From: an uncultured delta proteobacterium
GTDB lineage: Bacteria > Desulfobacterota > WTBG01 > CAIYCZ01 > CAIRTM01
Assembly: GCA_963804955.1 (NCBI GenBank)
Contig: CAWDSQ010000001.1
Span: forward strand, 17,879 to 81,878
Length of the DNA: 64,000 nt
Reading direction: 5' to 3'
Every line of letters starts with the position of its first letter. Position 1 is the first letter of the stretch. Positions 28,562 to 44,029 of the stretch are shown here, one piece after another. The notes beneath the pieces were generated by a model. That model was not told the DNA's origin, searched no databases, and saw only the letters and a list, made by a program, of their open reading frames with translations. The position numbers were made by a program, and so were the translations under genes.

Positions 28562-30587
28562 TCATTCCGAAAAGATTTCTTTAATGCTGTCACCTTGCGC
28601 TATAAAATACCGGTACCCTGGATAGAGCGCCATCATTTCTTTGTTGCGGTCTCCGGAATCCACCACGTAGAGGACCTCGTTGTCCAGAAAAGGAGAATTG
28701 GCCATCAAAAGGCAGCCAAAGATATGACGTGTAAAAATAATTGCTTTTCCAACCTTCTGATGTTCGACCTCGCGGAGCAGTGGCGGGTTGACTCCCCAAT
28801 AGTTGCTGCTGTAGACCTTGTAGAGGGCCGGTACGTTTGACGCCAGGGCGTACAGCGTGCAGAAAACCAGTACGGCCGTTGTGAGCCCATACAGGCGCCT
28901 GACAGATACTGCTCTTTTTAGCACCATTCTGGTGAGGTGCGGCAGGTTATGAATGCCGCGGGCGGTGAGCAGAATCATGATGCCCGCGGCTTCATACAAA
29001 AAGCGGGGGCCGAAGCACCAATCTTGAAACCAGTAAAACAGGTAGCCGCCGGCAAGGCAGAGGAAAGAGAAAAACAGCAGACGGTCCCAGCGATTTGTTT
29101 TCCCTGATGCAAACAGGATAAAAACGAATATGAGCGAAGGTATCGGCCACTCGAACAGATACTTGTTCAAACCAACGAAATTGTTCAGGGTATTGCGTAT
29201 GCCGCGCCCCAGCGTATGGGCCTCCCCCCAGCCTGCGTGACCAAAACCCGGCAGGTGACCATCGCCGTGGAGCATCTGATACCCGAAAATCAGGGGGCTG
29301 CCGTTGGTGAGATAATTAAAGGCCAGCAACAGAGCTACGAACACCGATGCCGCAAGCGACAGCGCGAGAAACGGCTTTCTGTAGTGCTTGAACTGCCGCC
29401 ATAAAAGACAGCTGGCGTGGAGGGCAAACGGCAGCGCAAGAGCCGCCGCCGTCAAGGGACGTATATTGACGATCCAGCCAAGGCAGGCTCCTGCAAGAAT
29501 TGCAGACAGCGTACTTTTCAGGCGCACTGTCCGGGCATAAAAAAGCAGGAATACTGTGAACAGGAACAGAGTGGTCACGTGGTTCATGAATTCCGATGAC
29601 ATAAAAAGAATGAACGGAGAGAAAAGGCTGAGCAACGCAGCCAGTCGCCCGATGGCTTCGCCATAGAACTCCCTGCCCAAAAAGTACAGAAGAACGATTG
29701 TAGCAGACCCCAGCAGCGGATTGATGAACCATGGCGCGCCCGCCAGAACCCCTAGCATCATCAGGAATGAGTGCCCCGGCGGATATTGAGAGTACCATCG
29801 GCCATTGTTGATGATATTATCGTAGTAGAAAAAATCTGAGAGCGGCGGAGACGGGGCTGTCAGGTGACCTGCGGCGAAATATTTTTCCGTGGAACACCTG
29901 TGCGACGCTGTCCTGAATATGGGGGATATGGTCAAAGGCAAACAAGGATACCATGTTTGTCAAAATGAACTCTGTCAGAAAAACAGCCATCAGAAACCAC
30001 GGCAGCGGTGAGGCGAAAACGAAATCCCGCAGGCGACGCCAAACGTTCAGATCGATGATATAGGCCGAGATGCCGATAAAGAAAAAGACGATGCCGTAGA
30101 GGCCAAGAGTCAGGTAGAGCGCTGCAGAGCGAACAAACAGCGGCGCGGGGTATCGTTTTTCCTCGAGAAAAAACCCCGAGAAAAAGCTGATCAGGAAGCA
30201 TAACAGTGTCAGCGATGCAGCCCACAACGCGGGTTTGTTTTTAAAGAGAGCAGCAACCGCTTCTCTTGCGCCCCGAAACAGGCATGCCACCGCCGGAAGC
30301 ACCACGAGCGAGAGGACGATAAAATATTCCCAGGGTATGCGCAGGTGGCCCGTGAAAAGAACATGACGGAATTCAACAAAACTTTCAGGGCCGGAATGCA
30401 GGGGGATATAACACATGTGCCATGGCTCGCAGCGCCTGAACATCGCCGCCAGAACCAATGCTCCCAGCACTCCCAGGATGCTTTTTAAGGGGAACTTAAA
30501 AGGTCGGGTACAACTAAACACGTGATTGATTCCAAATAGTGATAAACCTGTTAGAATTAATTTTACTGCATTAATACAACTTTTCAA
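28562..30587 (-). pseudogene. GT-C fold membrane glycosyltransferase (ArnT/PMT-like); one frameshift near 29880
   Basis: ORF 29817..30587 (N-terminal TM spans, ...FAFDHIPHIQDSVAQVFHGKIF) joins ORF 28562..29941 at AAGHLTAPSPPLSDFFYYDNIINNGRWYSQYPPGHSFLMMLG. Many further TM spans and a soluble tail follow. About 675 aa in total. Confidence 0.6.
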
Positions 30588-31398: not shown

Positions 31399-31947
31399 AT
31401 GATTGAAATAAGATTGCACGGGCGGGGCGGGGCAGGCGCGGTGACATCGGCGGAGCTGATGGCCATTACAGCCATTAATCTGGGAAAATATGCCCAGGCA
31501 TTTCCGAGCTTCGGCCCCGAGCGCCGGGGCGCGCCGGTCGTGGCCTTCTGCCGCATCGATGACAAGCAGATAAAACTGCGCACCAATATCAATAAGCCAA
31601 ATATCGTTCTGGTTCTTGATCCCTCCCTTCTTACTATCGTCAATGTAGTGGCAGGACTCAGGCAGGGGGGCATGCTGGTCATAAACAGCCGGCACTCCTG
31701 TGAGGACATACGCAAAGAGTTCGGCTTCACGTGCAGCATTGCCGCGGTGGACGCCACAAAAATCGCCCGCGAGGCAACGGGCCTTCCCATCACCAATGTC
31801 GCCATGCTGGGCGCGCTGCTGAAAGCCCGTGAAATTTTTGCGCCCGACGCCCTGACCGGCCCGGTCAACAAGCGGTTCGGCCGTATTGCCGAAAAAAATC
31901 TCATAGCCTTTCATCGCGCTTTTGCAGAAACCAGCGTCTTAACTTAA
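31399..31947 (+). CDS. porG: 2-oxoacid:ferredoxin oxidoreductase, gamma subunit
   Basis: MIEIRLHGRGGAGAVTSAELMAITAINLGKYAQAFPSFGPERRGAPVVAFCRID is the canonical POR/VOR gamma N-terminus. Confidence 0.9.
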   Translation: MIEIRLHGRGGAGAVTSAELMAITAINLGKYAQAFPSFGPERRGAPVVAFCRIDDKQIKLRTNINKPNIVLVLDPSLLTIVNVVAGLRQGGMLVINSRHSCEDIRKEFGFTCSIAAVDATKIAREATGLPITNVAMLGALLKAREIFAPDALTGPVNKRFGRIAEKNLIAFHRAFAETSVLT

Positions 31948-31970
31948 TAGACAGCAGGAAGGAGACAGCT

Positions 31971-32273
31971 TTGGCAAAAACACCAAAGTCTGAACTGGAA
32001 CTTACCTGGAAAGACCTTGAAGTGGGTTGCGTGATCAGCAATCCCGGCAATGCCTGCCAGTATAAAACCGGCGATTGGCGCTCAATGAAGCCGGTAGTCG
32101 ACAAAACACACTGCATCCGCTGCGGCGTATGCTATATCTTCTGCCCCGACATGGCGGTTCACAAGACCGATGACGGGTATTTTGAGGCTGACCTCTACTA
32201 TTGCAAGGGATGCGGCATCTGCGCCCGCGAGTGTTTTACCGGCTGCATAACCATGATACCGGAGGTGGAATAA
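31971..32273 (+). CDS. porD: 2-oxoacid:ferredoxin oxidoreductase, delta subunit (2x[4Fe-4S])
   Basis: CIRCGVCYIFCP and CKGCGICARECP-like Cys motifs. TTG start. Its stop overlaps the porA ATG (TAATG). Confidence 0.85.
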   Translation: MAKTPKSELELTWKDLEVGCVISNPGNACQYKTGDWRSMKPVVDKTHCIRCGVCYIFCPDMAVHKTDDGYFEADLYYCKGCGICARECFTGCITMIPEVE

Positions 32274-33451
32274 TGGGGGAGAGAGTAGGCATTGAAGTTT
32301 CGATTGCCGCAGCCGAAGCCGTGAAGATGGCCAATGTTGATGTGATTGCAGCCTACCCCATAACTCCGCAGACCCACATCGTGGAGCACCTGGCGGAGGT
32401 CGTGGCCGATGGCGAACTGGATGCCGAGTTCATTCCTGTCGAGAGCGAGCATTCTGCCATGAGCGTGTGCTGCGGCTCATCGGCAGTGGGCGCCAGGACA
32501 TTTACCTGCACAAGCTCCCAGGGCCTTGCCCTGATGAACGAGATAGTTTTTATCACGGCCTCGATGCGGCTGCCGGTGGTCATGGTGCTTGCCAACCGGT
32601 CGCTCTCGGGCCCCTTAAGCATCTGGAACGATCACTCCGATGTCATGTCCATCCGCGATTGCGGCTGGGTTCAGGTTTTTGTGGAAAACGGCCAGGAGGT
32701 GTTCGACCATATCATGTTCGCTTTCCGCGTTGCCGAAAGCCAGAATGTTTCCCTGCCCGTAATCGTCAATCTCGACGGGTTCATCCTCACCCATGTGATT
32801 GAGCCTGTTGAGTTCTGGGACAGTGAAACCGTCAAGAAATACCTTCCCCCTTTCAAGCCCGTAAACCGCCTGCACCCGGACAACCCGGTCACCATGGGCG
32901 CCTTCGGCATGCCCGGCATTTATACCGAAACCCGAAAGGCGCAGGACAGCGCCCTCATAGAGGCAAAGCCGGAAATTCTGAAAGCCTGGCAGGAGATGGC
33001 GGATCTCACGGGCAGGCACTACAAGCCTGTTGAGTCCTATCACGCCGAAGGGGCAGAAACCCTGTTTCTTACCATGGGCAGCATCGGCGAAACCGTGTCC
33101 GTTGCCGTTGACGAGCTGCGGGCCGAAGGTAAATCAGTCGGCCAGCTGAGCCTGCGGCTGTGGCGGCCCTTTCCCTTTGAAGAGTTCCGGCAGGCGGCAG
33201 CCGGCGCTAAAAGAATCATTGTTCTTGACCGCGCGGTTTCCATGGGCGGCCAGGGCGGCCCCGTGGCAACGGAAATACGCTCGGTGCTGTACAAGGAGAA
33301 GAACATGCCCGTGGTCACCAATTTCCTGTGCGGTTTTGCCGGCCGGGATGTCACGGTTGAGGATTACAAGGCCATGTTTGAAAAGGCGACAAAGATGTCA
33401 AAGCGCAGGGTGCGCGAAGAAGACTATATCATATACGGGGTGAGAGAATAG
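32273..33451 (+). CDS. porA: 2-oxoacid:ferredoxin oxidoreductase, alpha subunit
   Basis: MGERVGIEVSIAAAEAVKMANVDVIAAYPITPQTHIVEHL...ESEHSAMSVCCGSSAVGARTFTCTSSQGLALMNE. I chose the start at the ATG at 32273 inside the listed ORF 32201..33451. Confidence 0.9.
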   Translation: MGERVGIEVSIAAAEAVKMANVDVIAAYPITPQTHIVEHLAEVVADGELDAEFIPVESEHSAMSVCCGSSAVGARTFTCTSSQGLALMNEIVFITASMRLPVVMVLANRSLSGPLSIWNDHSDVMSIRDCGWVQVFVENGQEVFDHIMFAFRVAESQNVSLPVIVNLDGFILTHVIEPVEFWDSETVKKYLPPFKPVNRLHPDNPVTMGAFGMPGIYTETRKAQDSALIEAKPEILKAWQEMADLTGRHYKPVESYHAEGAETLFLTMGSIGETVSVAVDELRAEGKSVGQLSLRLWRPFPFEEFRQAAAGAKRIIVLDRAVSMGGQGGPVATEIRSVLYKEKNMPVVTNFLCGFAGRDVTVEDYKAMFEKATKMSKRRVREEDYIIYGVRE

Positions 33452-34389
33452 TGGAACAGCTCAATGTCTACGCGTCACGCCTGATTTCCAAAAAAGAATA
33501 CTTTTGCGCCGGGCCACCGGGCCTGCCAGGGATGCGCCGAGGCCCTTGCCGTGCGCAATGTGGCAAAGGCCCTGGGCAGCAATGTGGTTGTTGCAAGCGC
33601 TACAGGCTGCATGGAGATCATCTCCTCGCCCCTGCCGTTTACCAACTGGCGGGTTCCCTGGATACATGTGGCCTTTGAAAATGCCGCCGCGGTAATATCC
33701 GGGGCCGAGGCAGGCACCAAGGCGCTGGTGCGCAAGGGAATGCTTCCCGATATCAAAACGGTATTTCTCGGCATGGGCGGCGACGGCGCCACCAGCGATA
33801 TCGGGCTGCAGGCCCTGTCGGGCGCTTTTGAGCGGCGGCATAATTTCGTCTATGTCTGCTATGACAATGAAGCATACATGAACACGGGCATTCAGCGCTC
33901 ATCGGCCACGCCCTTCGGCGCGTCAACCACCACGTCGCCGGCGGGCAAGGTCAAGAAGGGCCAGTTTACCTGGAAAAAGAACATGCCCGAAATCGCCGTC
34001 GCCCACAATGTTCCCTATGTGGCCACGGCCTGCTCAAGCTACCCTTTTGATCTTATCGAAAAAGTGCAGAAGGCGCGCAAGAATGGAAGGGCCCGGCCTA
34101 TGTGCATATTCTTTCCATTTGCCCCACAGGCTGGCGCATCCCGCCGGACCGCGCCATCTGGATCGGCCGGCTTGCCGTTGAGACCGGGGTGTTCCCCCTG
34201 TATGAAGTGGTCAACGGCAAATACCGCATAACACATGAACTGCCCGAGCGCCGGCCCGTTGAGGAATATCTCAAGGCCCAGGGAAGATTCCGGCACCTGA
34301 CCCCTGATATGATAGAACGGATTCAAAAGCGGGTAGACAAAGAATACAAAAGGCTCAAAACAAAAGAAATCCTTGAAGAAATATGGTGA
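33451..34389 (+). pseudogene. porB: 2-oxoacid:ferredoxin oxidoreductase, beta (TPP) subunit; two frameshifts (~33505 in a T run, ~34080-34090)
   Basis: [18 protein letters not shown], then [20 protein letters not shown]...[19 protein letters not shown]...[16 protein letters not shown], then [16 protein letters not shown]...VFPLYEV. The three frames are collinear. The GTG start overlaps the porA stop (TAGTG). Confidence 0.85.
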
Positions 34390-34875
34390 GGCAGAGCATG
34401 CAGGCAAAGATACTGGAGATCATTTCCCGCTACGGCTCGGACAAAGGCTTCCTGGTTCCCATACTGCAGGATGTGCAGAAGGAGTTGAATTACCTGCCCG
34501 AAGACGCGCTGGTCATGGTGAGCACGCTTCTGGAGATTCCCGTCAGCCGCATCTTCGAGGTTGCGACCTTTTACAAGGCCTTCAGCCTTACCCCGCGAGG
34601 CCGTCATCAGCTGAGCCTGTGTCTGGGCACGGCCTGCCATGTGCGCGGCGCGCCCCTTATTTCGGGCCATATCGAGCGGGCGCTGGGCATCAGCGCAGGA
34701 GAGACATCACCCGATCTTGAGTTCACTTTTGAGACGGTCAACTGCCTCGGGGCCTGCGCCCTCGGGCCCGGTTATGGTGGTTGACGGCGACTATCACGGC
34801 CAGCTCACCATAGCAAAAACCAATGCGATCCTGCGGGATCTTGGCAGGAAGGTGCCCTCTGATGAAGAAGCTTAA
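34383..34875 (+). pseudogene. NuoE/HndA-like [2Fe-2S] subunit; one frameshift near 34770
   Basis: ILQDVQKELNYLPEDAL...ATFYKAFSL...LCLGTACHVRGA...VNCLGACALGP, then after the shift VMVVDGDYHGQL. The start overlaps the porB stop. An alternative ATG lies at 34398. Confidence 0.8.
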
Positions 34876-36729
34876 ATCACCCGGTGAGCTTGCAGCCCTG
34901 CAGGAGGAAATCCGCAAGGGGCGCGACCCGAACAAACCCTGCATCACCATCTGCGCGGGCACGGGCTGCCTTGCCTACGGCACGCAGAAGATTATCGAAT
35001 GCTTCAGGCAGGAGATTGAAAAGCAGCAGCTGCAGGACAAGGTGCAGCTGCGCACCAGCGGCTGTCACGGTTTCTGCGAGCGCGGACCCATGGTGGTCAT
35101 CCACCCGCAGAAGATTTTCTACCAGCGAATCAAAGCCGAGGATGTTCCCGATATTATCACAAAGACCGTTCTTGCCGGCGAGATCATCGACCGCCTGGCC
35201 TATGTCGACCCCGCCACAAAGCAGAAGATCGTCTATGAGCATGACGTGCCTTTCTATAAGCTCCAGACGCGCTATGTGCTGGGCATGAACGGCGATATCG
35301 ACCCGGCAAGCTCTTGACGACTACCTTGCCATCGGCGGGTACAGCGGCCTTGCCAAGGCCCTCTCCGGCATGAAGCCCGAGGCCGTTATCGAGGAGGTGA
35401 AAAAGGCCAATCTTCGCGGCCGCGGCGGCGGCGGTTTTCCGGCCGGCTGGAAGTGGGACTCCACCCGCAAGGCGGCGGGTGAGCCCAAGTACGTTATCTG
35501 TAATGCCGATGAGGGCGACCCCGGCGCCTATATGGACAGAAGCCTGCTTGAGGGCAATCCGCATCTGGTGCTTGAGGGCATGATTATCGGCGCCTATGCC
35601 ATCGGCTCAAGCAGGGCTACATCTACGTGCGCAATGAATATCCCGCTGGCCGTGCACAATGTCACCCTTGCGATTGAAAAGGCGCGGGAGGCCGGGCTTC
35701 TGGGTGAAAATATTCTGGGCTCCGGGTTCAGCTTCGATATCAAGATCAACCGCGGCGGCGGGGCTTTTGTGTGCGGCGAATCATCGGCCCTGTTTGCCTC
35801 CATCGAAGGCCGCAGCGGCGAGCCCCGGGCAAAATATGTGCATGCAACCGACCAGGGCCTTTACAACAAGCCCACCAACCTCAACAATGTTGAGACCTGG
35901 GGCAATGTGCCCCTCATCATCAACCGGGGCGCAGACTGGTACGCAAGCATCGGCACCGCAGAACAGCACGGGAACGAAAATATTTTCGCTGGTCGGCAAG
36001 ATCAACAATACGGGCCTGGTGGAAGTGCCCATGGGCATTACGCTGCGGGAGATCGTCTATGACATCGGCGGCGGCATCCCCAAAGGCCGCAAATTCAAGG
36101 CCGTGCAGACCGGCGGCCCTTCGGGCGGCTGCATCCCCGAGCAGTTTCTCGACATGCCCGTTGATTTCGACGAGCTGACCAAGATCGGCTCCATGATGGG
36201 CTCGGGCGGCATGATCGTCATGGATGACCGCACCTGCATGGTCGACGTGGCAAAGTATTTTCTGAAATTTCTCGAGGAAGAGTCCTGCGGCAAGTGCACG
36301 CCCTGCCGCGAAGGCGTCCTGCAGATGCGCCTTATACTTGACCGCATCTGCGAGGGCCAGGGAAAGGAAGAAGACATCGACACCCTTGAGTGGATGGGCC
36401 AGGCGATCAATGACGGCTCCCTGTGCGCCCTGGGCGGCTCAGCGCCCAATCCCGTGCTCACCACCATCAAGTATTTCCGCAATGAGTACGAGGCGCATAT
36501 AAAAGATAAAAAGTGCCCGGCAGGCGTGTGCAAGGCCCTCATCACCTACAGCGTGGATCCGGTAACATGCACGGGCTGTCATGCCTGCGCCCGGGTGTGC
36601 CCCACGCAGGCGGCAACAGGCGAGAAAAAGCAGACCCACACGATCAGCCTTGAAAAGTGCATTAAGTGCGGCGCCTGCTATGAGGCCTGCAAGTTTGATG
36701 CGATAGTGGTACAGTTAGGGCAGGGTTAA
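34862..36729 (+). pseudogene. NuoF/HndC/HydB-like NAD(H)-binding FMN/Fe-S subunit with N-terminal thioredoxin-like [2Fe-2S] domain and C-terminal 2x[4Fe-4S]; at least 4 indels
   Basis: CAGTGCLAYG...CHGFCERGP; LRGRGGGGFPAGWKW; ICNADEGDPGAYMDR; [13 protein letters not shown]; [12 protein letters not shown]...[12 protein letters not shown]. Frame changes lie near 35315 and 35955. There is also a compensating indel pair at ~35610-35650: the text reads [16 protein letters not shown] where [13 protein letters not shown] sits one frame over. Confidence 0.8.
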
Positions 36730-36960
36730 AGTTCAGTGTTAGGTTGCAAGGTTTAAAGTTTGAAGTTAAAGTCCAAGGTTAAGAGTTCAGGGTTCGGGGT
36801 TCAGTTTTTGTGGGTTGGGTTAAGCCCGGATAAAACCTTTGTTTTTGAATAAGTTCATAAAAAGCCGTCACCCCGGTGAAAACCGGGGTCCAGAATAAAT
36901 GCCTGATTCGTTAAAGGCTCTGGATACGCGAAGCATGTCCGCCGGTATGACGAAAACGAC
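36729..36960. repeat. Repeat-filled spacer: degenerate G/T-rich tandem run, a GGTTGGGTTAAGCCCGG module and REP-like hairpins
   Basis: 36730-36810 is a C-poor degenerate run (gttaaagttcagtgttaggttgcaaggtttaaagtttgaagttaaagtccaaggttaagagttcagggttcggggttcag). The 17-mer GGTTGGGTTAAGCCCGG at 36813-36829 recurs exactly at 55284-55300. A hairpin ACCCCGGT-gaaa-ACCGGGGT lies at 36870-36889. Confidence 0.7.
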
Positions 36961-36984
36961 ACAACGACTGAAAAGGATGCTGCG

Positions 36985-37703
36985 ATGTCTGACACAGTCA
37001 CACTGACAATAGACGGCAGAAAAATAAGCGTTCACGCGGGAACGACGATCATGGAGGCTGCGCGGAGCGTCAATATCGACATTCCCAATCTCTGCAGCAA
37101 TGAAGAGCTTGCGCCCTACGGCGCCTGCAGGCTCTGCATGGTTGAAATAGTCCATGGCAAAAGGACCCGCACTGGTGACCTCCTGCATCTATGAGGTGGC
37201 AGAGGGCCTTGAGGTGACAGACCGTTACCGAGCGCGTGCTCAATGTGCGCAAACTGGTCATCGAGCTGCTGCTTGCCCGCAACCCCTATCATCCCCGGCT
37301 GCTCGACATTGCCGGCGGAGATCGGCGTGGCGGGCTCGCGCTTTAAGGAGGATGTACAAGGGCTGCATCCTGTGCGGCCAGTGCGTGCGCACCTGCCGCG
37401 AGGTGGTGGGCGTTGCCGCCATCGGCTTTAAAGGCCGCGGCAGCACCCGCATGGTTGTTACGCCTTTTGACAAGGCGCCGCCCGACTGCATCGCCTGCGG
37501 CTCCTGCTCCTATATTTGCCCGGTCAACGTCATTCCGCTGGAAGATAAGCCAGCCGTGCGCACGATCTGGAAGACCGAGTTTCCCATGGCAGTCGTGCAA
37601 AAAGTGCGGCCGCCCCTTTGCTCCGGAAAAGCAGCTGGCCTACTTCCGTAAAATCGCCAACCTGCCCGAGAATCATTTCGATACCTGTATTCAGTGCAGG
37701 TAA
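36985..37703 (+). pseudogene. NuoG/HndD N-terminal-like Fe-S protein ([2Fe-2S] plus [4Fe-4S] sites, no catalytic domain); at least 4 frameshifts
   Basis: MSDTVTLTIDGRKISVHAGTTIMEAARSVNIDIPNLCSNEELAPYGACRLCMVEI. The continuations lie in other frames: LVTSCIYEVAEGLEV; ERVLNVRKLVIELLLARNP; GCILCGQCVRTCREVVGVAAIGFKGRGS...CIACGSCSYICPVNVIP; CKKCGRPFAPEKQLAYFRKIANLPENHFDTCIQCR*. Confidence 0.7.
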
Positions 37704-38056
37704 GCGCCGGAATGGCCGACCTGCAGCAGCCAACCGCAGGTTGCTTGCGTGGGCCTGCTTTGCGCCTCCTGCGCTCAAGGGATAGGTGCAAAACCTGTTT
37801 CCTTGTGCTATCCTTAACCCTGTTTGGGTCTTTTGACAGCGCTCCCTATCGCCTTTTTATGCTGAAAATTTTTCCGGATGGAACCCTGCATGAGCATATC
37901 CGGGCGTTGACTCCCGGCAAAGGATCCGTGCCTTCAGAGTATCTACACGCAACACATGCCTGCGAAGAAGCACAGGCATCCGGGCTAACCCAACAGATGA
38001 TTGGTTCCGGGGTTTTCGTTGACTCACCAAACAGACTTTGCGGGGGTATACATTCC

Positions 38057-39535
38057 ATGAGTGCGGTCGACACGGATGTCGTCATCATCGGCTCGGGTTT
38101 GGGCGGCCTTACCAGCGCAATTCTTTTGGGAGAGATGGGGCTCAGGGCGATGATCATTGAACGCAACCCCCTTCCCGGCGGGTTGTTGCGCAGTTATACG
38201 CGGCAGGGCATTGACTGCGCCGTCGGGCTCCATTATTTCGGCCCTGCAGGTGAGGGCGAGCTGCTGAGGCAGATGTTTGATGTTCTTGGCGTAACCGACA
38301 AGCTGAAGCTGCGGCGTCTGGGCACAGGCGGAATTCTTGAGCGCTATATTTTTGATGATCTGACCTTTGATCTCCCCCCAACTTTCACGGGTTTTGATCA
38401 GGCTCTTCGCAGCATGTGCCCCAATGAGAGCGATGCAATTGACACTATTGTTTCCGTTGTGCGCTCACTTGCTCATGGCCTGCACTTCGACGCCACAGGC
38501 CGGCTGCAGTCAAACCTCTTTTCCTTTGTGGGCTTCAACCAGAGCATGGAGGATTTTCTGCAAGCCGCGGGATGTTCAAAAAAGCTTCACGATATTCTCA
38601 CGGTGCACGGGTTCTGGACCGGGCTGCCCATGGATACATGTCCCGCCTATCTTCTTCTCTACACGCTGGGAGCGCTGCTCCGGTCGGCATGGGAGCTTGG
38701 CTGTACCGGCGCGCAGATGGTGGAGGCCTATGTCGAGCGCAGCCGTGCAACAGGGGCGGACCTGCTGCTGGGCGATCCTGTTGAGCATATTTTTGTTCGC
38801 GATGGCCGCGCATGCGGCGTCGGGCTGAAGTCAGGCCGCACCATGTCATGCCGGAAAATTATCGCGGGCATTCATCCCAAGCTCGTGCTGCCCATGCTTC
38901 CCGACGGCGCTATCCCTGCAGAGTATCGCCAGGGGCTTATGAATCTTGAGGAAACGCCGGGCGCGGTCTGCGTTCGTCTGCTGGTGAGTCAGAAACAGCA
39001 TGAAGCCCCCGGCTATAACCTGTTTCGCATTCATAAGGTGGACAGGGTCACTATAGACGGAACTTTTTTTCAGCTGCGGCAGAGTGAACGTGCCGGATGG
39101 AATGTGCTCACCATGATCCGGGGGTCGGACTGCGCGGACTGGAAAAAGTGGCAGGACACGCATACCGGCAGCCGGGGCCCGGACTATGAGCAGGCGAAGA
39201 TGCGCGCTGCCGAGTCGATGATCAAGACGGCCCGCACCGTGCTGGGAACCCTTGAGGATTACCTGATTCTTGATATTTCAACACCCCTTACAACTCGCGA
39301 CCGGGTTGCAAGTCCCGAGGGCTCCATGTACGGGCTTCTGCATTCAGTAAAAAACGCTCTGCAATATGCTGTGCTGACACGCCTGCCGGTCCGCTCCCTC
39401 TACCTCGTGGGCCAGAGCGCAATAGCGCCGGGGCTGCTGGGCGTAACCCTGAGCGTTCTGCGCGGTGTGGGCGAAGTGGCCGGCCGTGCAAATTTTCAGA
39501 AATTTCTTGCCGGCAGGCTGGCGGGGCAGGAGTAG
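38057..39535 (+). CDS. FAD-dependent oxidoreductase of the phytoene-desaturase/amine-oxidase family
   Basis: MSAVDTDVVIIGSGLGGLTSAILLGEMGLRAMIIERNPLPGGLLRSY (dinucleotide-binding fold), 492 aa from the ATG at 38057. The listed ORF 37694..39535 has a 121-codon upstream extension without recognisable content. Confidence 0.75.
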   Translation: MSAVDTDVVIIGSGLGGLTSAILLGEMGLRAMIIERNPLPGGLLRSYTRQGIDCAVGLHYFGPAGEGELLRQMFDVLGVTDKLKLRRLGTGGILERYIFDDLTFDLPPTFTGFDQALRSMCPNESDAIDTIVSVVRSLAHGLHFDATGRLQSNLFSFVGFNQSMEDFLQAAGCSKKLHDILTVHGFWTGLPMDTCPAYLLLYTLGALLRSAWELGCTGAQMVEAYVERSRATGADLLLGDPVEHIFVRDGRACGVGLKSGRTMSCRKIIAGIHPKLVLPMLPDGAIPAEYRQGLMNLEETPGAVCVRLLVSQKQHEAPGYNLFRIHKVDRVTIDGTFFQLRQSERAGWNVLTMIRGSDCADWKKWQDTHTGSRGPDYEQAKMRAAESMIKTARTVLGTLEDYLILDISTPLTTRDRVASPEGSMYGLLHSVKNALQYAVLTRLPVRSLYLVGQSAIAPGLLGVTLSVLRGVGEVAGRANFQKFLAGRLAGQE

Positions 39536-39985: not shown

Positions 39986-40211
39986 TATCGGCTTCCCAGT
40001 TTTCACCAATCGGGGAGACAACATCCCCAACCGTGCAGCAGGCGCGAAGCTCGGCCAAGCGCTTGCGCGCGGCCTCACGCTCGTCGCGCACCGGCACGAG
40101 GCTTGCCACCACTTTGCCGCGTGATGTCACCAAAAGCTGTTCTCCTTTTTTTACCTTGCCGATATAGGCGGGCAGATGGCTTCGCAATTCGGTAATATTT
40201 ATCTGACGCAT
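39972..40211 (-). CDS. Phd/YefM-type antitoxin partner of VapC
   Basis: MRQINITELRSHLPAYIGKVKKGEQLLVTSRGKVVASLVPV is the typical Phd/YefM N-terminus. GGAGAGG lies 4 nt upstream of the ATG. Confidence 0.8.
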   Translation of the reverse strand: MRQINITELRSHLPAYIGKVKKGEQLLVTSRGKVVASLVPVRDEREAARKRLAELRACCTVGDVVSPIGENWEADNAGS

Positions 40212-40220
40212 AAGACCTCT

Positions 40221-40268
40221 CCTTTAACCGTACACTTACAATGTACAGTTAAAGGTTCAATAAGTCAA
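40221..40268 (-). promoter_or_regulatory. Putative vapBC promoter with overlapping operator palindrome
   Basis: On the minus strand: TTGACT (40268-40263), a 17-nt spacer, then TACATT (40245-40240). An inverted repeat CTTTAACCGTACA / TGTACAGTTAAAG (40222-40254, 13-nt arms with 1 mismatch, 7-nt spacer) overlaps the -10 box. Confidence 0.45.
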
Positions 40269-41724
40269 TTCTTTTGCCGCTGGGAATCCGGGGTTTTATC
40301 CGGCTCAAAATGCTGTTTGGCCGCAAGAAAAGACGGCAGATGCCGCAGGAGATGGAACATGCTCCACCGGTGCTGCCAGATGCGCCGGGCGAATGTGCGG
40401 CGCCAGGTGGGGTCGGTAGTAGAAGCGCTTGACATGGCTGTTGTACAGGTAAGTCGAGCTTTTCTTTTGATTCAATGGCCTTCGGGACGAACACGAAATT
40501 CAGGCAGTTCATCAGCTTCCAGTTTTCCTCAAAGGTCCCTTCATCGCGCAGCTCCTGCCAGACAGGCGCGCCCGGGAAGGGCGTAAATTTCGACATGTTC
40601 ATGTCATCCAGCCCCAGGGACATCACAAAGTCGCTCGTTGCCTGAATCGATGCTTCCGTCTCGCCCGGCAGGCCCATCATGAAAAGCCCCTTTGCCCTGA
40701 GGCCGCAGGCTTTGATCCGGGCAACGGTGTCGCGGACCTCATCAAGCGTTACCCCTGCCTTATGGCGCTCAAGCATCGCCGGATCTGCCGATTCGATACC
40801 AACCGATACCATGAGGCAGCCTGCTGCTTTGAGCGTTTTCAGAAGATCATTGTCTGCATGCCCGACCCGCACAGCGCAGTTGAACTGTATGCCCGAGAGG
40901 CTTTGCGGTCAAAAGGCGGCACAGCTCGAAAATGCGGGGCCTGTTCAGGGTAAATAAATCATCATAAATATTTATATGCCGCACGCCGAAGCGCTGGCGC
41001 AGGTGCTTCATATGCTCATAGATGTATTCAGGCGAGTTGTACCGGTACGAGCGCTTAAAGACAGAGCGGTCGCAGTATGAGCACTCATAGGGGCAGCCGC
41101 GGCTGGTTGACATGGTTGCGCCGGGAATTTCGATGAAGCTGAACAGGGGCAGGTTGTATGAACGGGGAAAACCTTTCAGGCCTTCATAGTCAGGAAAAGG
41201 CAGCTGGTCCAGATCCGGCAGGGGCGCGCGGGGAGCATTGGTAACAATCTTTTCACCATCGCGCCAGATGAGGCCGTTGATATGCTGCGGGGTTTGACCT
41301 GATGCAAGCTCTGAAAGGGTTGCCTCTCCTTCTCCGGGAGATCAGATAATCAATGCCGGGAAAGTCCTGCAGCAGAGTCGCACCAAGGGCTGACACATGC
41401 ACGCCGCCAAAGACGGTTTTGACCTGCGGGCGGGCTTGTTTGATCATGTCTGCCATATCATTGCCGTCGAGAAAACTTGACGTGGTCGTTGAAAAGCCGA
41501 CCAGATCGGGAGTCTGCGGCAAGCACGGCCTGTACATTTTCTGCAATGCTCTGAGGCGCTTCCGGGCCGAGGCAGTCATGAATGAAAACCTGATGACCGT
41601 TGCGCTTCAGATAGGCGGATATTGACAGCAGTCCCAGAGGCGCCATCCTGTTTGCCGTGGCGGTAATATCCTTTTTACCGGGGACCCAGTTTGATCCGGC
41701 CGGATGGACAAGCATGATGCGCAT
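40265..41724 (-). pseudogene. Cobalamin-binding-domain radical SAM enzyme (class B rSAM) no. 1; heavily frameshifted (at least 6 indels)
   Basis: MRIMLVHPAGSNW...APLGLLSISAYLKRNGHQVFIHDC; DLVGFSTTTSSF...VFGGVHVSAL; MSTSRGCPYECSYCD (CxxxCxxC); GHADNDLLKTLKAAGCLMVSVGIESADPAMLERHKAG...GLFMMGLPGET. The tail ...YLYNSHVKRFYY / DPTWRRTFARRIWQHRWSMFHLLRHLPSFLAAKQHFEPDKTPDSQRQKN* is spread over three frames, with the stop at 40265-40267. Confidence 0.75.
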
Positions 41725-41751
41725 GGCAATTTAAAGATGAAGGATTTAAAA

Positions 41752-41892
41752 AGAAGTCAGAATTCAGTAGCCGGAATTCAGAATAGAAGATTCACAGCAA
41801 ACCTAAGCATCGGGAACCGTGCACCTGCATGAATTTTTCGAATCTTGAATTGTTTTCCTTCTGACTTCTGGATTCTGAATTCTGGCTACTTC
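41752..41892. repeat. GAATTC-centred palindromic (MITE-like) intergenic element, copy 1
   Basis: AGTAGCCGGAATTCAGAAT (41766-41784) and ATTCTGAATTCTGGCTACT (41872-41890) form a 19-nt inverted repeat with 1 mismatch. The right-end motif recurs at 43961 and 51205. Confidence 0.7.
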
Positions 41893-43238
41893 CCGCTGCC
41901 TATCGAAAAACTTTTCAATCCTTTCCCGGTCATGTTTCCCTGTTGGAAGCACGGGAATGGAATCAACGATTTTGATATGGCGGGGGATGGCATAGGGTTC
42001 GCATAGTTTTTGACAAGCCCGGCCCTTATTGCTGGTGCATCGCATGCTGCCTACAACAAGGGCAGCAATATCGCTGCCCCTGCCGGTGCGGGCTGCATTG
42101 CAAAGACCGACGGCATCACAAACGCCCGAGAGCGTTTTTAATTTATCGCACACTTCAGCAAGATCTACCCGCCTGCCGCCGACTTTTACAATATTGTCGG
42201 CCCGGCCATGAAGGGTAAAGCTGTCGGCCCCGCATGGGTTCTGCGCGGTCGGCAGTGGTAAAAAAGCCATCCTGATCGCGGGGCAGCTCGGGCGAGAGAA
42301 AATCCGAGCGCACCAGCAGCTGCCCATTGAGTATCTTCCAGTCAATGCCTTGAAACGCGCGGCATACATGCCTGTCGGCCGGGGAAGCTGTCCATGCAAT
42401 GCCTCCTGTTTCCGTGGAGCCGTAAATTTCGGTGACGGCAATACCGGTTTTTTCATAAAAATACTCGGCATCAGGCCGTGGAGCATGCCGGCAGATGAAA
42501 AAGCCAGCCTGAGGGTATAGCGCTGCAGGTTTTCGGTTTTCAGCACATGATACTGCGACGGGAACGCTTACTAAAATTGTAGCCTCCGAATCTCTGGCTG
42601 CGGCAAGAATTTCTTGCGGAAATGAATACACGGGCTCAAGCACGGTGCAGCCCGACATGAGCGGCACCAGAACGGAAAAAAGCAGCCCGTAAATGTGCTG
42701 TGGCGGCACGGTTGAAAGAATACAATCATCGGGGGCCTATGCCAAATGTTTCTGCAAGAAGCTGCGCTTCGCCAAAAAGGTTCCGTGCGGTTTTAGACCA
42801 CAGCTTTGGTTTGCCGGTTGAGCCGCCGGTAAAGAGCATGACTCGCGGCGCATCGGCATCACCTGCAGTATACACAAGAGGCGCAGGCAGAATGCCACGC
42901 TCTCTGGCGTGATAACCGTGTAGCCTGTGGGCGGGCATCTTTGCTGCTGGAGAGGATTTTTGAAAAAGGGATGCTTGACTCGCGCATCGTCGAGAGCCTG
43001 CTGGAAAAGGCATAGGGAATAATGATGCGCGGCCCGCCGCACGCAGCGGCAAGCAGGGCAGCGGCCATACGGGTTTTGTCCTGCGTCCAGAGGCAGAGGG
43101 GCTCATCCGGTGAACTAAGGCTGCACAGGCCTGCAGCTAAAGGCCACATCAGCCCGGTTTGGCCACCGGCAATGAACGGGCTTGAAGGCGGCTGCCGGTA
43201 CTACGATTAAGGCAATCAGTCAGTTTGTCTTTCATGGT
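41803..43238 (-). pseudogene. AMP-dependent synthetase/ligase (adenylate-forming, aryl/acyl-activating); at least 5 frameshifts
   Basis: Fragments in different frames: MKDKLTDCLN (ATG at 43238); MLFTGGSTGKPKLWSKT (AMP motif); PPQHIYGLLFSVLVPLMSGCTVL; TEIYGSTETGGIA; HGRADNIVKVGGRRVDLAEV; PVLPTGKHDR. The 3' end is approximate because the ORF runs into the repeat element. Confidence 0.75.
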
Positions 43239-43386
43239 TTTAAAAAAGCAATTTCTGGATAGGCCCGTAGAGCAGGGGGTATTTCTTGACTTTTCGGGCT
43301 GTTTATATTCTATTCACATAATCCTGCTGCTATCAGCACATGCTTTAAGTAGCATGATTTTGTCCAATTGCCAATTACAGTGTTCT

Positions 43387-43808
43387 ATGCCCGACAGAGC
43401 TATTGATGATTTGATACCGCATCGCGGCCGAATGAAGCTGATCGGGTCGATTGTGCAGGTCAGCAATGATATCGCCGTTACCTCGGCAGTTGTGGCCGAT
43501 ACCTGGCCCCTGTGTGCACGGGGCTTCAGTGAACCCGATCGTGCTCATAGAGGTAGCTGCGCAGACGGCGGGCGTGCTCTCCTGCTGGAAAAAGGGCGAG
43601 AGCAGATCGGCCTTCACAGCCGGAATGCTTACGGGCATCAAAAGCGCTGAATTTTTTGTCGACCAGGTGCCTCTGCACGCAGAGCTGATCACCACGGCCA
43701 CGATCATGTACAGCCTTGATGATTATGAGGCAATTGAGGCAACGGTCATGCTGGGACGAGCAGTGCCTCTGCAAAGTGCAGCTGCAGATATTCGGGGTGC
43801 GGGGATAA
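43387..43808 (+). pseudogene. Hot-dog fold beta-hydroxyacyl-ACP dehydratase (ApeI/ApeP-like); two frameshifts (~43515 in a G4 run, ~43755)
   Basis: MPDRAIDDLIPHRGRMKLIGSIV...TWPLCARG, then VNPIVLIEVAAQTAGVLSCW...FTAGMLTGIKSAEF, then DEQCLCKVQLQIFGVRG* (stop at 43806-43808). Confidence 0.7.
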
Positions 43809-43811
43809 AAA

Positions 43812-43997
43812 CAGGATTCAGAAGCCAGAATCCAGAGTCCAGGAATTCAGAAGAAAAAAATTCAAACTGCAGGGCAGGATCCTGGCCTGCATGGGTTCGG
43901 AGTTCGTAGTATGGGCATCCGCCGTGGCGAATCCTTGCCCAAGTGTGCTTTGTATCTTCTATTCTGAATTCTGACTACTGGATTCTGGATTCTAAAG
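43812..43997. repeat. GAATTC-centred palindromic (MITE-like) intergenic element, copy 2
   Basis: The left end reads caggattcagaagccagaatccagagtccaggaattcagaag. The right end carries ATTCTGAATTCTGACTACT (43961-43979) followed by ggattctggattct. Confidence 0.65.
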
Positions 43998-44029
43998 ATT
44001 ATTGCTAAACTTTACAGACCGGGAGCTGT

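Follow-up and report, generated by a model that had tools for sequence, protein, structure and literature searches.

What does a run of genes encode when it joins a 2-oxoacid oxidoreductase to a set of NADH-dehydrogenase-like proteins and its last four reading frames are broken, and does its host possess the enzyme at all? The question is raised by positions 31399-37703 of a 64,000-nucleotide stretch of DNA (the window, meaning the whole stretch analysed; contig CAWDSQ010000001.1 of assembly GCA_963804955.1) from an uncultured delta proteobacterium, in which genes for a four-subunit pyruvate-type 2-oxoacid:ferredoxin oxidoreductase (POR) are followed by three genes of a flavin/iron-sulfur module. 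Our answer, to which we give a probability of about 0.62, is that the locus encodes a seven-subunit Por-Bfu, with PorGDAB wired to a BfuABC flavin/iron-sulfur module, and that the 13 one-base insertions and deletions (indels) in it are assembly errors. The idea of a linked POR/Bfu enzyme is not new: Por-Bfu (Por-BfuABCDEFG), with a POR part of four subunits, was predicted in 2022 and classed as Type 2 within the BfuABC family (once called HydABC), with Dehalococcoides mccartyi 195 as its type example (Schut et al., 2022, Front Microbiol 13:946711, PMC9304861). Support for Por-Bfu has so far come from gene order and from the similar expression of all its genes over growth phases in D. mccartyi 195 microarrays (PMC9304861). 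Judged by its subunits and motifs, the enzyme predicted in the window is of this type (Schut et al., 2022).

Seven contiguous genes

Open reading frames (ORFs) and Pfam domain searches agree on seven collinear + strand genes, porG-porD-porA-porB-bfuC-bfuB-bfuA, in the order and with the domain content given by a first-pass annotation of the window, which had called the last three NuoE-, NuoF- and NuoG-like. The leading three are intact: porG (31399-31947) encodes the gamma subunit of 182 residues, which corresponds to domain III, the CoA-binding part of the oxidoreductase (Pfam POR, 9.8e-36); porD (31971-32273, TTG start) encodes the delta subunit of 100 residues, a Fer4 dicluster protein with two CxxCxxCxxxC motifs in its translation for two [4Fe-4S] clusters; and porA (32273-33451) encodes the alpha subunit of 392 residues (POR_N at 9.5e-71, and PFOR_II). 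The other four are frameshifted: porB (33451-34389, GTG start) for the beta subunit, with the thiamine pyrophosphate (TPP) site and the proximal [4Fe-4S] cluster (TPP_enzyme_C); bfuC (34383-34875) for a NuoE/HydC-like protein with [2Fe-2S] cluster C1 (2Fe-2S_thioredx, PF01257, 6e-40); bfuB (34862-36729) for a HydB-type NuoF-like protein; and bfuA (36985-37703) for a short protein of 237 residues that resembles the NuoG N-terminus and WorA (Fer2_4 and Fer4 dicluster).

How tightly are these genes packed? Each of the four junction strings reported earlier was located exactly where it had been placed: the porD stop overlaps the porA start in TAATG (32271-32275), the porA stop overlaps the porB start in TAGTG (33449-33453), the string ATGGTGA stands at the porB/bfuC junction (34383-34389), and bfuC and bfuB overlap by 14 nt (34862-34875), an overlap kept in two relatives (L015 and L011, described below). 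At the third junction the string is present, but the overlap read from it probably is not: ATG 34398 is a likelier start for bfuC than 34383, because an SD-like (Shine-Dalgarno-like) GGTGAGG lies just upstream and the relatives' proteins align from 34398, and this start leaves an 8-nt gap behind porB. In relatives, porB and bfuC lie 8 to 86 nt apart. A consensus scan found no convincing terminator or promoter on the + strand within the operon or the spacer that precedes bfuA; with the POR and bfu genes contiguous, their order conserved and no + strand terminator consensus in the scan, the seven genes may form one transcription unit.

Cofactor sites of the Bfu module

Does the module carry what sets bifurcating enzymes apart? 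The NuoF-like subunit has the extended domain set attributed to it on first reading: Pfam matches and motifs confirm an N-terminal thioredoxin-like [2Fe-2S] domain, the FMN/NADH sites (Complex1_51K), SLBB, the N3-type domain (NADH_4Fe-4S) and a C-terminal pair of [4Fe-4S] clusters (2x Fer4). Its fragments match the models PF01512, PF10531, PF10589 and Fer4 dicluster, and we take PF01512, PF10531, PF10589 and Fer4 to be the Pfam counterparts of IPR011538, IPR019554, IPR019575 and IPR017896. These four InterPro entries (Nuo51 FMN-binding, SLBB, NuoF 4Fe-4S-binding and 4Fe-4S ferredoxin-type) are the domains that define BfuB (PMC9304861). The motifs of all bfuB cofactors were located in the window, distributed over three frames: those of B5 at 34952-34969 and 35060-35089, the two C-terminal CxxCxxCxxxC motifs of B3/B4 at 36568-36690, and three at the B2 site, TCMV and LDRIC among them. 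The five B2-site ligands, His included, align with C438, C476, H525, C531 and C536 of 7t2r_B (7T2R residue numbers as in PMC9304861), and the BfuB of a congener matches 7t2r_B (NiFe-Bfu HydB, 1.5e-238) and 9mqx_B (WorB, 3.8e-238) about equally well. Non-bifurcating homologues of BfuB (NuoF/HoxF) are without the N-terminal [2Fe-2S] cluster B5, the C-terminal B3/B4 and the B2-site His/Cys set (PMC9304861); because bfuB retains B5, B3/B4 and all five B2-site ligands, a bifurcating enzyme is favored over a non-bifurcating one. Of the two options between which the first-pass annotation had wavered, this favors the bifurcating variant.

The two smaller subunits are consistent with this assignment. 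In bfuC, the Cx4C and Cx3C motifs that supply the C1 ligands lie at 34620-34643 and 34743-34757, and the congener's BfuC matches 7t2r_C and 9mqx_C; a NuoE-like domain (IPR002023) with C1 [2Fe-2S] ligands is what defines BfuC (PMC9304861). bfuA matches PF13510/PF00111 and a Fer4 dicluster, that is, a [2Fe-2S] cluster A1 and two [4Fe-4S] clusters A2/A4, and the congener's BfuA matches 9mqx_A (WorA, 247 aa) at 4.4e-47 over residues 1-218. A motif and alignment check found no A3 motif (HxxxCxxCxxxxxC) after the [2Fe-2S] domain of bfuA, and no A5 domain; a C-terminal CxxC...CxxC zinc-finger motif is present (CKKCGRP at 37596-37616, CIQCR-stop at 37686-37703), and the protein ends one residue past the last Cys, with no C-terminal adaptor helix. 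BfuA proteins have at least one 2Fe-2S and one 4Fe-4S ferredoxin-type domain, and those of Type 2 Bfu and Por-Bfu keep A1, A2 and A4 and are without A3/A5 (PMC9304861), with a zinc finger and no C-terminal helix (PMC12318220). At the sequence level, all defining features of Por-Bfu are present in the domains and motifs of BfuA, BfuB and BfuC.

The POR part and its substrate

On the POR side, Pfam, motifs, TIGR02175 and TIGR02179 between them identify every expected part: a beta subunit that binds TPP, an alpha and a gamma subunit, and three [4Fe-4S] clusters. The GDG...N TPP motif of porB lies at 33779-33883, and a tblastn alignment with the relatives' intact PorB takes in residues 1-307, passing through frames 1, 2 and 1. 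PorA is 96% identical to that of a same-genus locus (L017), and its best solved relative is 9bt4_B, the alpha subunit of a four-subunit pyruvate:ferredoxin oxidoreductase (4e-99).

Which 2-oxoacid would this enzyme use? The first-pass annotation had held that the substrate could not be read from the sequence; NCBIfam models narrow it a little, toward pyruvate. porG falls in the subfamily TIGR02175 (PorC_KorC), and it scores 200 bits with its best equivalog, that of the gamma subunit of pyruvate ferredoxin oxidoreductase, below the 225-bit cut-off; porD falls in TIGR02179 (PorD_KorD), and its pyruvate equivalog scores 108 bits, below the cut-off of 120; PorA reaches 493 bits against its pyruvate equivalog, below the cut-off of 550. 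The PorB orthologue of L017 passes the pyruvate synthase PorB equivalog NF008819 (423.6 vs 405 bits), and pyruvate-type models rank first for all four subunits. Pyruvate is thus the likeliest substrate.

The same superfamily also holds enzymes with a pyridine-nucleotide acceptor, namely phenylglyoxylate:NAD+ oxidoreductase (PadEFGHI of Azoarcus/Aromatoleum) and the eukaryotic pyruvate:NADP+ oxidoreductase (Euglena, Cryptosporidium). The NAD(P)-reducing parts of both are unrelated to NuoEF/Bfu, and neither enzyme is known to bifurcate. Assignment of the window POR to PadEFGHI was rejected on the Pad equivalogs, which score 159 vs 300, 73 vs 150, 301 vs 700 and 244 vs 700 bits against their cut-offs; the eukaryote-type enzyme was rejected because the POR subunits are separate and no ORF of the locus has a flavodoxin or FAD_binding_1-type domain. 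The comparison with pyruvate:NAD(P)+ oxidoreductase drawn on first reading thus holds as a functional analogy only, there being no cytochrome-P450-reductase-type domain.

Proposed reaction

In the proposed mechanism, pyruvate and CoA would be converted to acetyl-CoA and CO2 at the PorA/PorB TPP site, and the electrons would travel from the PorB cluster through the two PorD clusters to A4, A2 and A1 of BfuA and into the BfuBC core (FMN, B1, B5 and C1). There, the four electrons from two pyruvate would be split, two leaving as hydride to NAD+ and two through B3/B4 of BfuB to ferredoxin (Fd); the net reaction would be 2 pyruvate + 2 CoA + NAD+ + 2 Fd(ox) -> 2 acetyl-CoA + 2 CO2 + NADH + 2 Fd(red), and the reverse, pyruvate synthesis, would also be possible. 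The single complex, bifurcation, the stoichiometry and the physiological direction are what we infer from the sequence. A precedent for such a mechanism is Wor-Bfu, because it has a very low-potential donor and reduces NAD+ and ferredoxin only together (PMC9304861).

Conservation and distribution

Is the arrangement peculiar to one contig? The seven genes are intact and in the same order in a second locus of the genus (L015) and in loci of the same family (L013), order (L016) and class (L012 and L014), as they are in the complete metagenome-assembled genome (MAG) of the benzene fermenter Thermodesulfobacteriota bacterium ORM2a (L011, CP113000); the same-genus L017 (a contig of G002) carries the same seven-gene order, and the operon is present in six further genomes of the class. 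The main text of the ORM2a proteomics paper (PMC13101534) does not mention it. A synteny survey of the kind suggested on first reading was run as a PorA alignment scan with one genome per species, which gave 80 loci, 67 of them with enough downstream sequence; in 39 of these 67 informative loci, bfuC, bfuB and bfuA directly follow porB. The linked loci come from MAGs labelled Thermodesulfobacteriota, Desulfatiglandales, SAR324, Dehalococcoidia/Dehalococcoidaceae, Myxococcota, Actinomycetota (Solincola), Bacillota, Dethiobacter and others, and this cross-phylum linkage supports the coupling of 2-oxoacid chemistry to NAD(H)/ferredoxin that the first-pass annotation had inferred and that matches the published prediction (Schut et al., 2022, PMC9304861).

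On the PorA tree, the window belongs to a 12-member clade (SH-aLRT 96) in which 10 members are linked to bfu genes and 2 are uninformative. A phylogeny of the NuoF-like subunit, also proposed earlier, was built on the intact 248 C-terminal columns of BfuB: it mostly groups Por-linked sequences apart from the paralogues of the genome, but its resolution is poor, and it neither shows nor excludes a single origin of Por-linked BfuB. An extra Cys near the PorD C-terminus is present in 56% of linked and 4% of unlinked PORs.

Within the genus, no por-bfu orthologue was found in G001 or G003, which are 76-79% complete. In G003, the flanks of the operon (window 28562-30565 and 37960-39530) lie about 150 kb apart and inverted on one contig (C37), with no por-bfu in this 79%-complete genome; the BfuB of the window is 88% identical to that of ORM2a, a member of another family, and only 60-70% identical to those of most same-family genomes. 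Because of this pattern of identity and the lack of an orthologue in G003, the distribution is patchy and possibly shaped by horizontal transfer. Another congener, G004, has two or three non-identical partial copies of the operon (L134, L137 and L141, each on its own short contig: C416, C146 and C357), with 91%, 89% and 93% identity to the window; this assembly probably mixes strains.

Other POR and Bfu clusters in the genome

The genome has a stand-alone porGDAB at G000:C35:58232-61161, with a 59% identical PorA and no bfu genes downstream; the organism therefore has a ferredoxin-only POR as well as Por-Bfu. It also has a second Bfu cluster (L206:1307-9293; G000:C7:378307-386296), in which the gene order is FAD-dependent oxidoreductase (460 aa), PorD-like protein with 2x[4Fe-4S] (113 aa), PorB-like protein (309 aa), BfuC, BfuB, BfuA (275 aa), another FAD-dependent oxidoreductase (437 aa) and, last, a PNPOx-like protein. 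The GDG...N TPP motif is lost from the PorB-like protein, which has no Pfam match, and the cluster contains neither PorA nor PorG; five relatives (L195, L197, L203, L204 and L205) share this arrangement.

Which parts of a POR would touch the Bfu module? In the C7 cluster, PorA and PorG are missing and a PorD and a TPP-less PorB still stand next to bfuCBA, which points to these two as the subunits that dock to the module. A more tentative proposal, which we regard as possible and as somewhat short of an even chance, is that PorD/PorB is a dedicated docking adaptor between a 2-oxoacid oxidoreductase and the BfuABC core, and that the window operon encodes a genuine bifurcating enzyme of seven subunits (or, if it runs backward, a confurcating one that makes pyruvate). 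If so, the lineage, with a ferredoxin-only POR, Por-Bfu and a TPP-less PorB/PorD that links Bfu to geranylgeranyl-reductase-like flavoenzymes, would be a natural series for the way in which Bfu gains third substrates.

Frameshifts in the operon

Protein-guided and DNA alignments to intact orthologues identify 12 one-nt insertions and 1 one-nt deletion between 33502 and 37595: insertions in porB at about 33502, 34075 and 34089 (seen against three congener contigs), in bfuC at about 34767, in bfuB at about 35312, 35643 and 35956, and in bfuA at about 37172, 37216, 37317, 37356 and 37595 (three-way DNA alignment), and the deletion in bfuB at about 35610. No indels were found in porG, porD or porA in the alignments to orthologues, many of the 13 lie outside long homopolymers, and the same alignments of the locus reveal no nonsense substitutions or larger deletions. 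The genes are more broken than the first reading had implied.

Do they belong to the organism or to its assembly? The single rpoB of the genome is split between two frames near C30:225000 (G000:C30:222099-226147; L097/L098), two of the three lon copies are split (G000:C7:273031-275326 and G000:C30:1027-3313), and on contig C35 the porA of the stand-alone cluster is split twice, over three frames; the broken rpoB and lon copies show that the assembly carries indel errors genome-wide. Within the window, 56 indels of 1-2 nt, about 40 of them insertions, are window-specific (present against every covering same-genus genome, with at least two such genomes covering the site) and lie scattered across its length. 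The densest cluster, 28 events at 40000-44000, is outside por-bfu and denser than the por-bfu locus; AT-rich parts are almost indel-free, and the error rate is very uneven, apparently rising with G+C. Bacterial pseudogenes accumulate deletion-biased indels of mixed size, and near-pure one-base insertions are a technical signature. Substitutions on the window branch are non-synonymous or synonymous in a ratio (N:S) of 8:58 in bfuB and 3:9 in bfuC, and the sister branch is similar. With rpoB, lon and the por paralogue split, the indels window-wide and insertion-biased, and the changes in bfuB and bfuC mostly synonymous, the frameshifts are most likely assembly errors, and the organism would have an intact operon. 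True inactivation of porB and the nuoE/F/G-like genes, which the first-pass annotation had kept open, is by the same token most likely unfounded, since the damage resembles assembly indels. The window copy is nonetheless too error-ridden to serve as a reference sequence.

In the closest relative, too, the frame of bfuB (L017:3262-5159, on G002:C362) is interrupted once, by a 1-nt deletion that aligns with window position 35871, so the short-read MAGs of the genus are not error-free either.

One intact bifurcating enzyme?

Several observations weigh against an intact, seven-subunit bifurcating Por-Bfu. Linked and stand-alone PORs interleave on the PorA tree, whose well-supported branches require no fewer than six gains or losses, and for this reason the POR part is, to judge from the tree, an ordinary four-subunit POR lineage that has repeatedly gained or lost the Bfu module. 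No subunit length separates linked from unlinked PORs (the median lengths are equal), and no alignment column does so cleanly (the best frequency difference is about 0.6-0.7), which leaves no docking signature. We found no purified or demonstrably bifurcating Por-Bfu in the literature up to late 2026, and the energetic rationale for bifurcation is uncertain, since electrons from pyruvate oxidation (about -500 mV) could reach both NAD+ and ferredoxin without it (PMC9304861). Finally, the 13 indels of por-bfu fall in 4.25 kb (with 0 in the 2 kb of porGDA), above the window average, and the N-terminal half of bfuA has a window-branch N:S of 14:24, a non-synonymous excess that may stem from additional errors or from a degree of true divergence and that leaves room for real decay of bfuA.

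What else might such a locus encode? The interleaved PorA tree with its six or more changes, the equal lengths, the lack of a discriminating column and the variable distance between porB and bfuC would all suit two separate enzymes that share an operon and form no complex, a ferredoxin-dependent POR and a free BfuABC-like module that equilibrates ferredoxin and NAD(H). We consider this unlikely: the short BfuA has no catalytic domain, so BfuABC alone would be without a third substrate, and electron transfer from NADH to ferredoxin alone is endergonic; moreover, the order porB-bfuC-bfuB-bfuA is conserved across phyla, and the derived C7 cluster has kept PorD and the TPP-less PorB by bfuCBA while PorA and PorG were lost. 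A non-bifurcating, NAD+-dependent pyruvate oxidoreductase, which would send all electrons to NAD+ via a HoxEFU-like diaphorase, as in phenylglyoxylate:NAD+ or eukaryotic pyruvate:NADP+ oxidoreductase, would profit from the potential of pyruvate, low enough for direct reduction of NAD+; NADH-dependent phenylglyoxylate dehydrogenase subunits are among the weaker NCBIfam matches of all four POR subunits, and BfuA is similar to HoxU in size. Yet the Pad models stay far under their cut-offs, a P450-reductase-type domain is absent, and BfuB still has its [2Fe-2S] cluster at the N-terminus, 2x[4Fe-4S] at the C-terminus and the His/Cys set of the B2 site, all lacking in characterised non-bifurcating homologues (PMC9304861), which makes this enzyme quite unlikely. 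Very unlikely, in our judgment, is a decaying pseudogene cluster, in which the frameshifts would be real and the stand-alone porGDAB on the other contig would do the work: an essential single-copy gene, rpoB, is split likewise, denser indel clusters occur elsewhere in the window, the 12 one-nt insertions among 13 events do not look like a pseudogene pattern, the window-branch substitutions in bfuB and bfuC are overwhelmingly synonymous, and the alignments are free of nonsense substitutions and larger deletions. In favor of decay stand the excess of indels over the window average, the repeat elements inserted between bfuB and bfuA, the non-synonymous excess in bfuA, the second POR and the missing orthologues in G001 and G003, but these two congeners are only 76-79% complete.

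Comparison with known systems

If the locus encodes an intact Por-Bfu, how does it compare with enzymes already described? Like Por-Bfu, the window operon combines four POR subunits with BfuC, BfuB and a short BfuA, in which A3/A5 are missing and the zinc-finger motif is not followed by a C-terminal helix, as stated for Por-Bfu in PMC12318220; its host belongs to the "syntrophic Proteobacteria" (now Thermodesulfobacteriota), one of two groups named in PMC9304861, and the Dehalococcoidaceae loci retrieved here share its gene order. Unlike D. mccartyi, the host is an uncultured genus of Thermodesulfobacteriota, in the class of the benzene fermenter ORM2a; the window copy also differs in having a repeat-filled spacer before bfuA and 13 one-base indels, which are probably artefacts.

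Among solved enzymes, WorABCSL (Wor-Bfu) of Acetomicrobium mobile (cryo-EM 9MQX; PMC12318220) has the closest BfuA, since WorA shares A1, A2, A4 and the zinc finger, and its WorB is nearly as close to BfuB as the best match. In Wor-Bfu, the third-substrate module is a tungsten aldehyde oxidoreductase connected via a WorS nanowire that docks on the C-terminal helix of WorA, whereas the window operon has no WorS/WorL and its donor would be a TPP enzyme. The NiFe-HydABCSL of A. mobile (7T2R/7T30) and the FeFe-HydABC of Thermotoga, Thermoanaerobacter kivui and Acetobacterium woodii (7P5H, 8A6T and 7Q4V) have the BfuBC core in common with it: they match window-type BfuB at about 700-800 bits and BfuC at 1e-40 to 5e-44, and all their B1-B5 and C1 ligands are conserved in window-type BfuBC. 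One B2-site residue is Cys in the NiFe enzyme, Thr in the FeFe enzymes and Cys in the window bfuB; among solved enzymes, the NiFe enzyme alone has a [2Fe-2S] cluster at this site in place of zinc. In contrast to the Hyd enzymes, the window operon has no hydrogenase domain or subunits, and its BfuA is reduced to the N-terminal cluster domain. With four-subunit pyruvate:ferredoxin oxidoreductases (9BT4; archaeal enzymes and Thermotoga PorABCD), the window POR shares the subunit set, the TPP motif and three [4Fe-4S] clusters; these stand-alone PORs pass electrons to free ferredoxin, whereas the window POR has bfuCBA directly downstream.

Why would such an enzyme matter? In anaerobes, Por-Bfu would give the central acetyl-CoA/pyruvate node a direct connection to both the NAD(H) and the ferredoxin pool, and this is relevant to how syntrophs, organohalide respirers and hydrocarbon fermenters that live near the thermodynamic limit balance their energy. 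Since the type has been predicted and not isolated, each documented operon helps to choose a source organism and to define the conserved subunit set. Taken as a single finding, the window operon is confirmatory; it adds the presence of Por-Bfu in the ORM2-related class of Thermodesulfobacteriota, its coexistence there with a stand-alone POR, and a POR linkage repeatedly gained or lost.

The spacer and the neighboring locus

The spacer between bfuB and bfuA (36730-36984; 255 bp, assigned to no strand) is filled with repeats, as the first-pass annotation had noticed: it consists of degenerate 7-nt repeats and two modules, at about 36805-36841 and 36842-36959, the second of which holds the hairpin ACCCCGGT-GAAA-ACCGGGGT (36870-36889). 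Both modules recur on many other contigs of the genome (e.g., C26:181653-181761, C7:373231-373305, C29 and C11) and look like REP/MITE-like elements. Only in this genome do they stand between bfuB and bfuA; in the congeners L015 and L017, the two genes are about 30-50 bp apart, without the repeat spacer.

Behind bfuA lies a gene for a CrtD/CrtI-like FAD enzyme (37694/37994-39535), which was considered as an eighth subunit and rejected: it does not stand downstream of the operon in relatives and is part of the neighboring lipid locus. Its longest ORF as a CrtD/CrtI-like FAD-dependent desaturase (37694-39535), from GTG 37694, would overlap the end of bfuA, and homology starts near residue 125.

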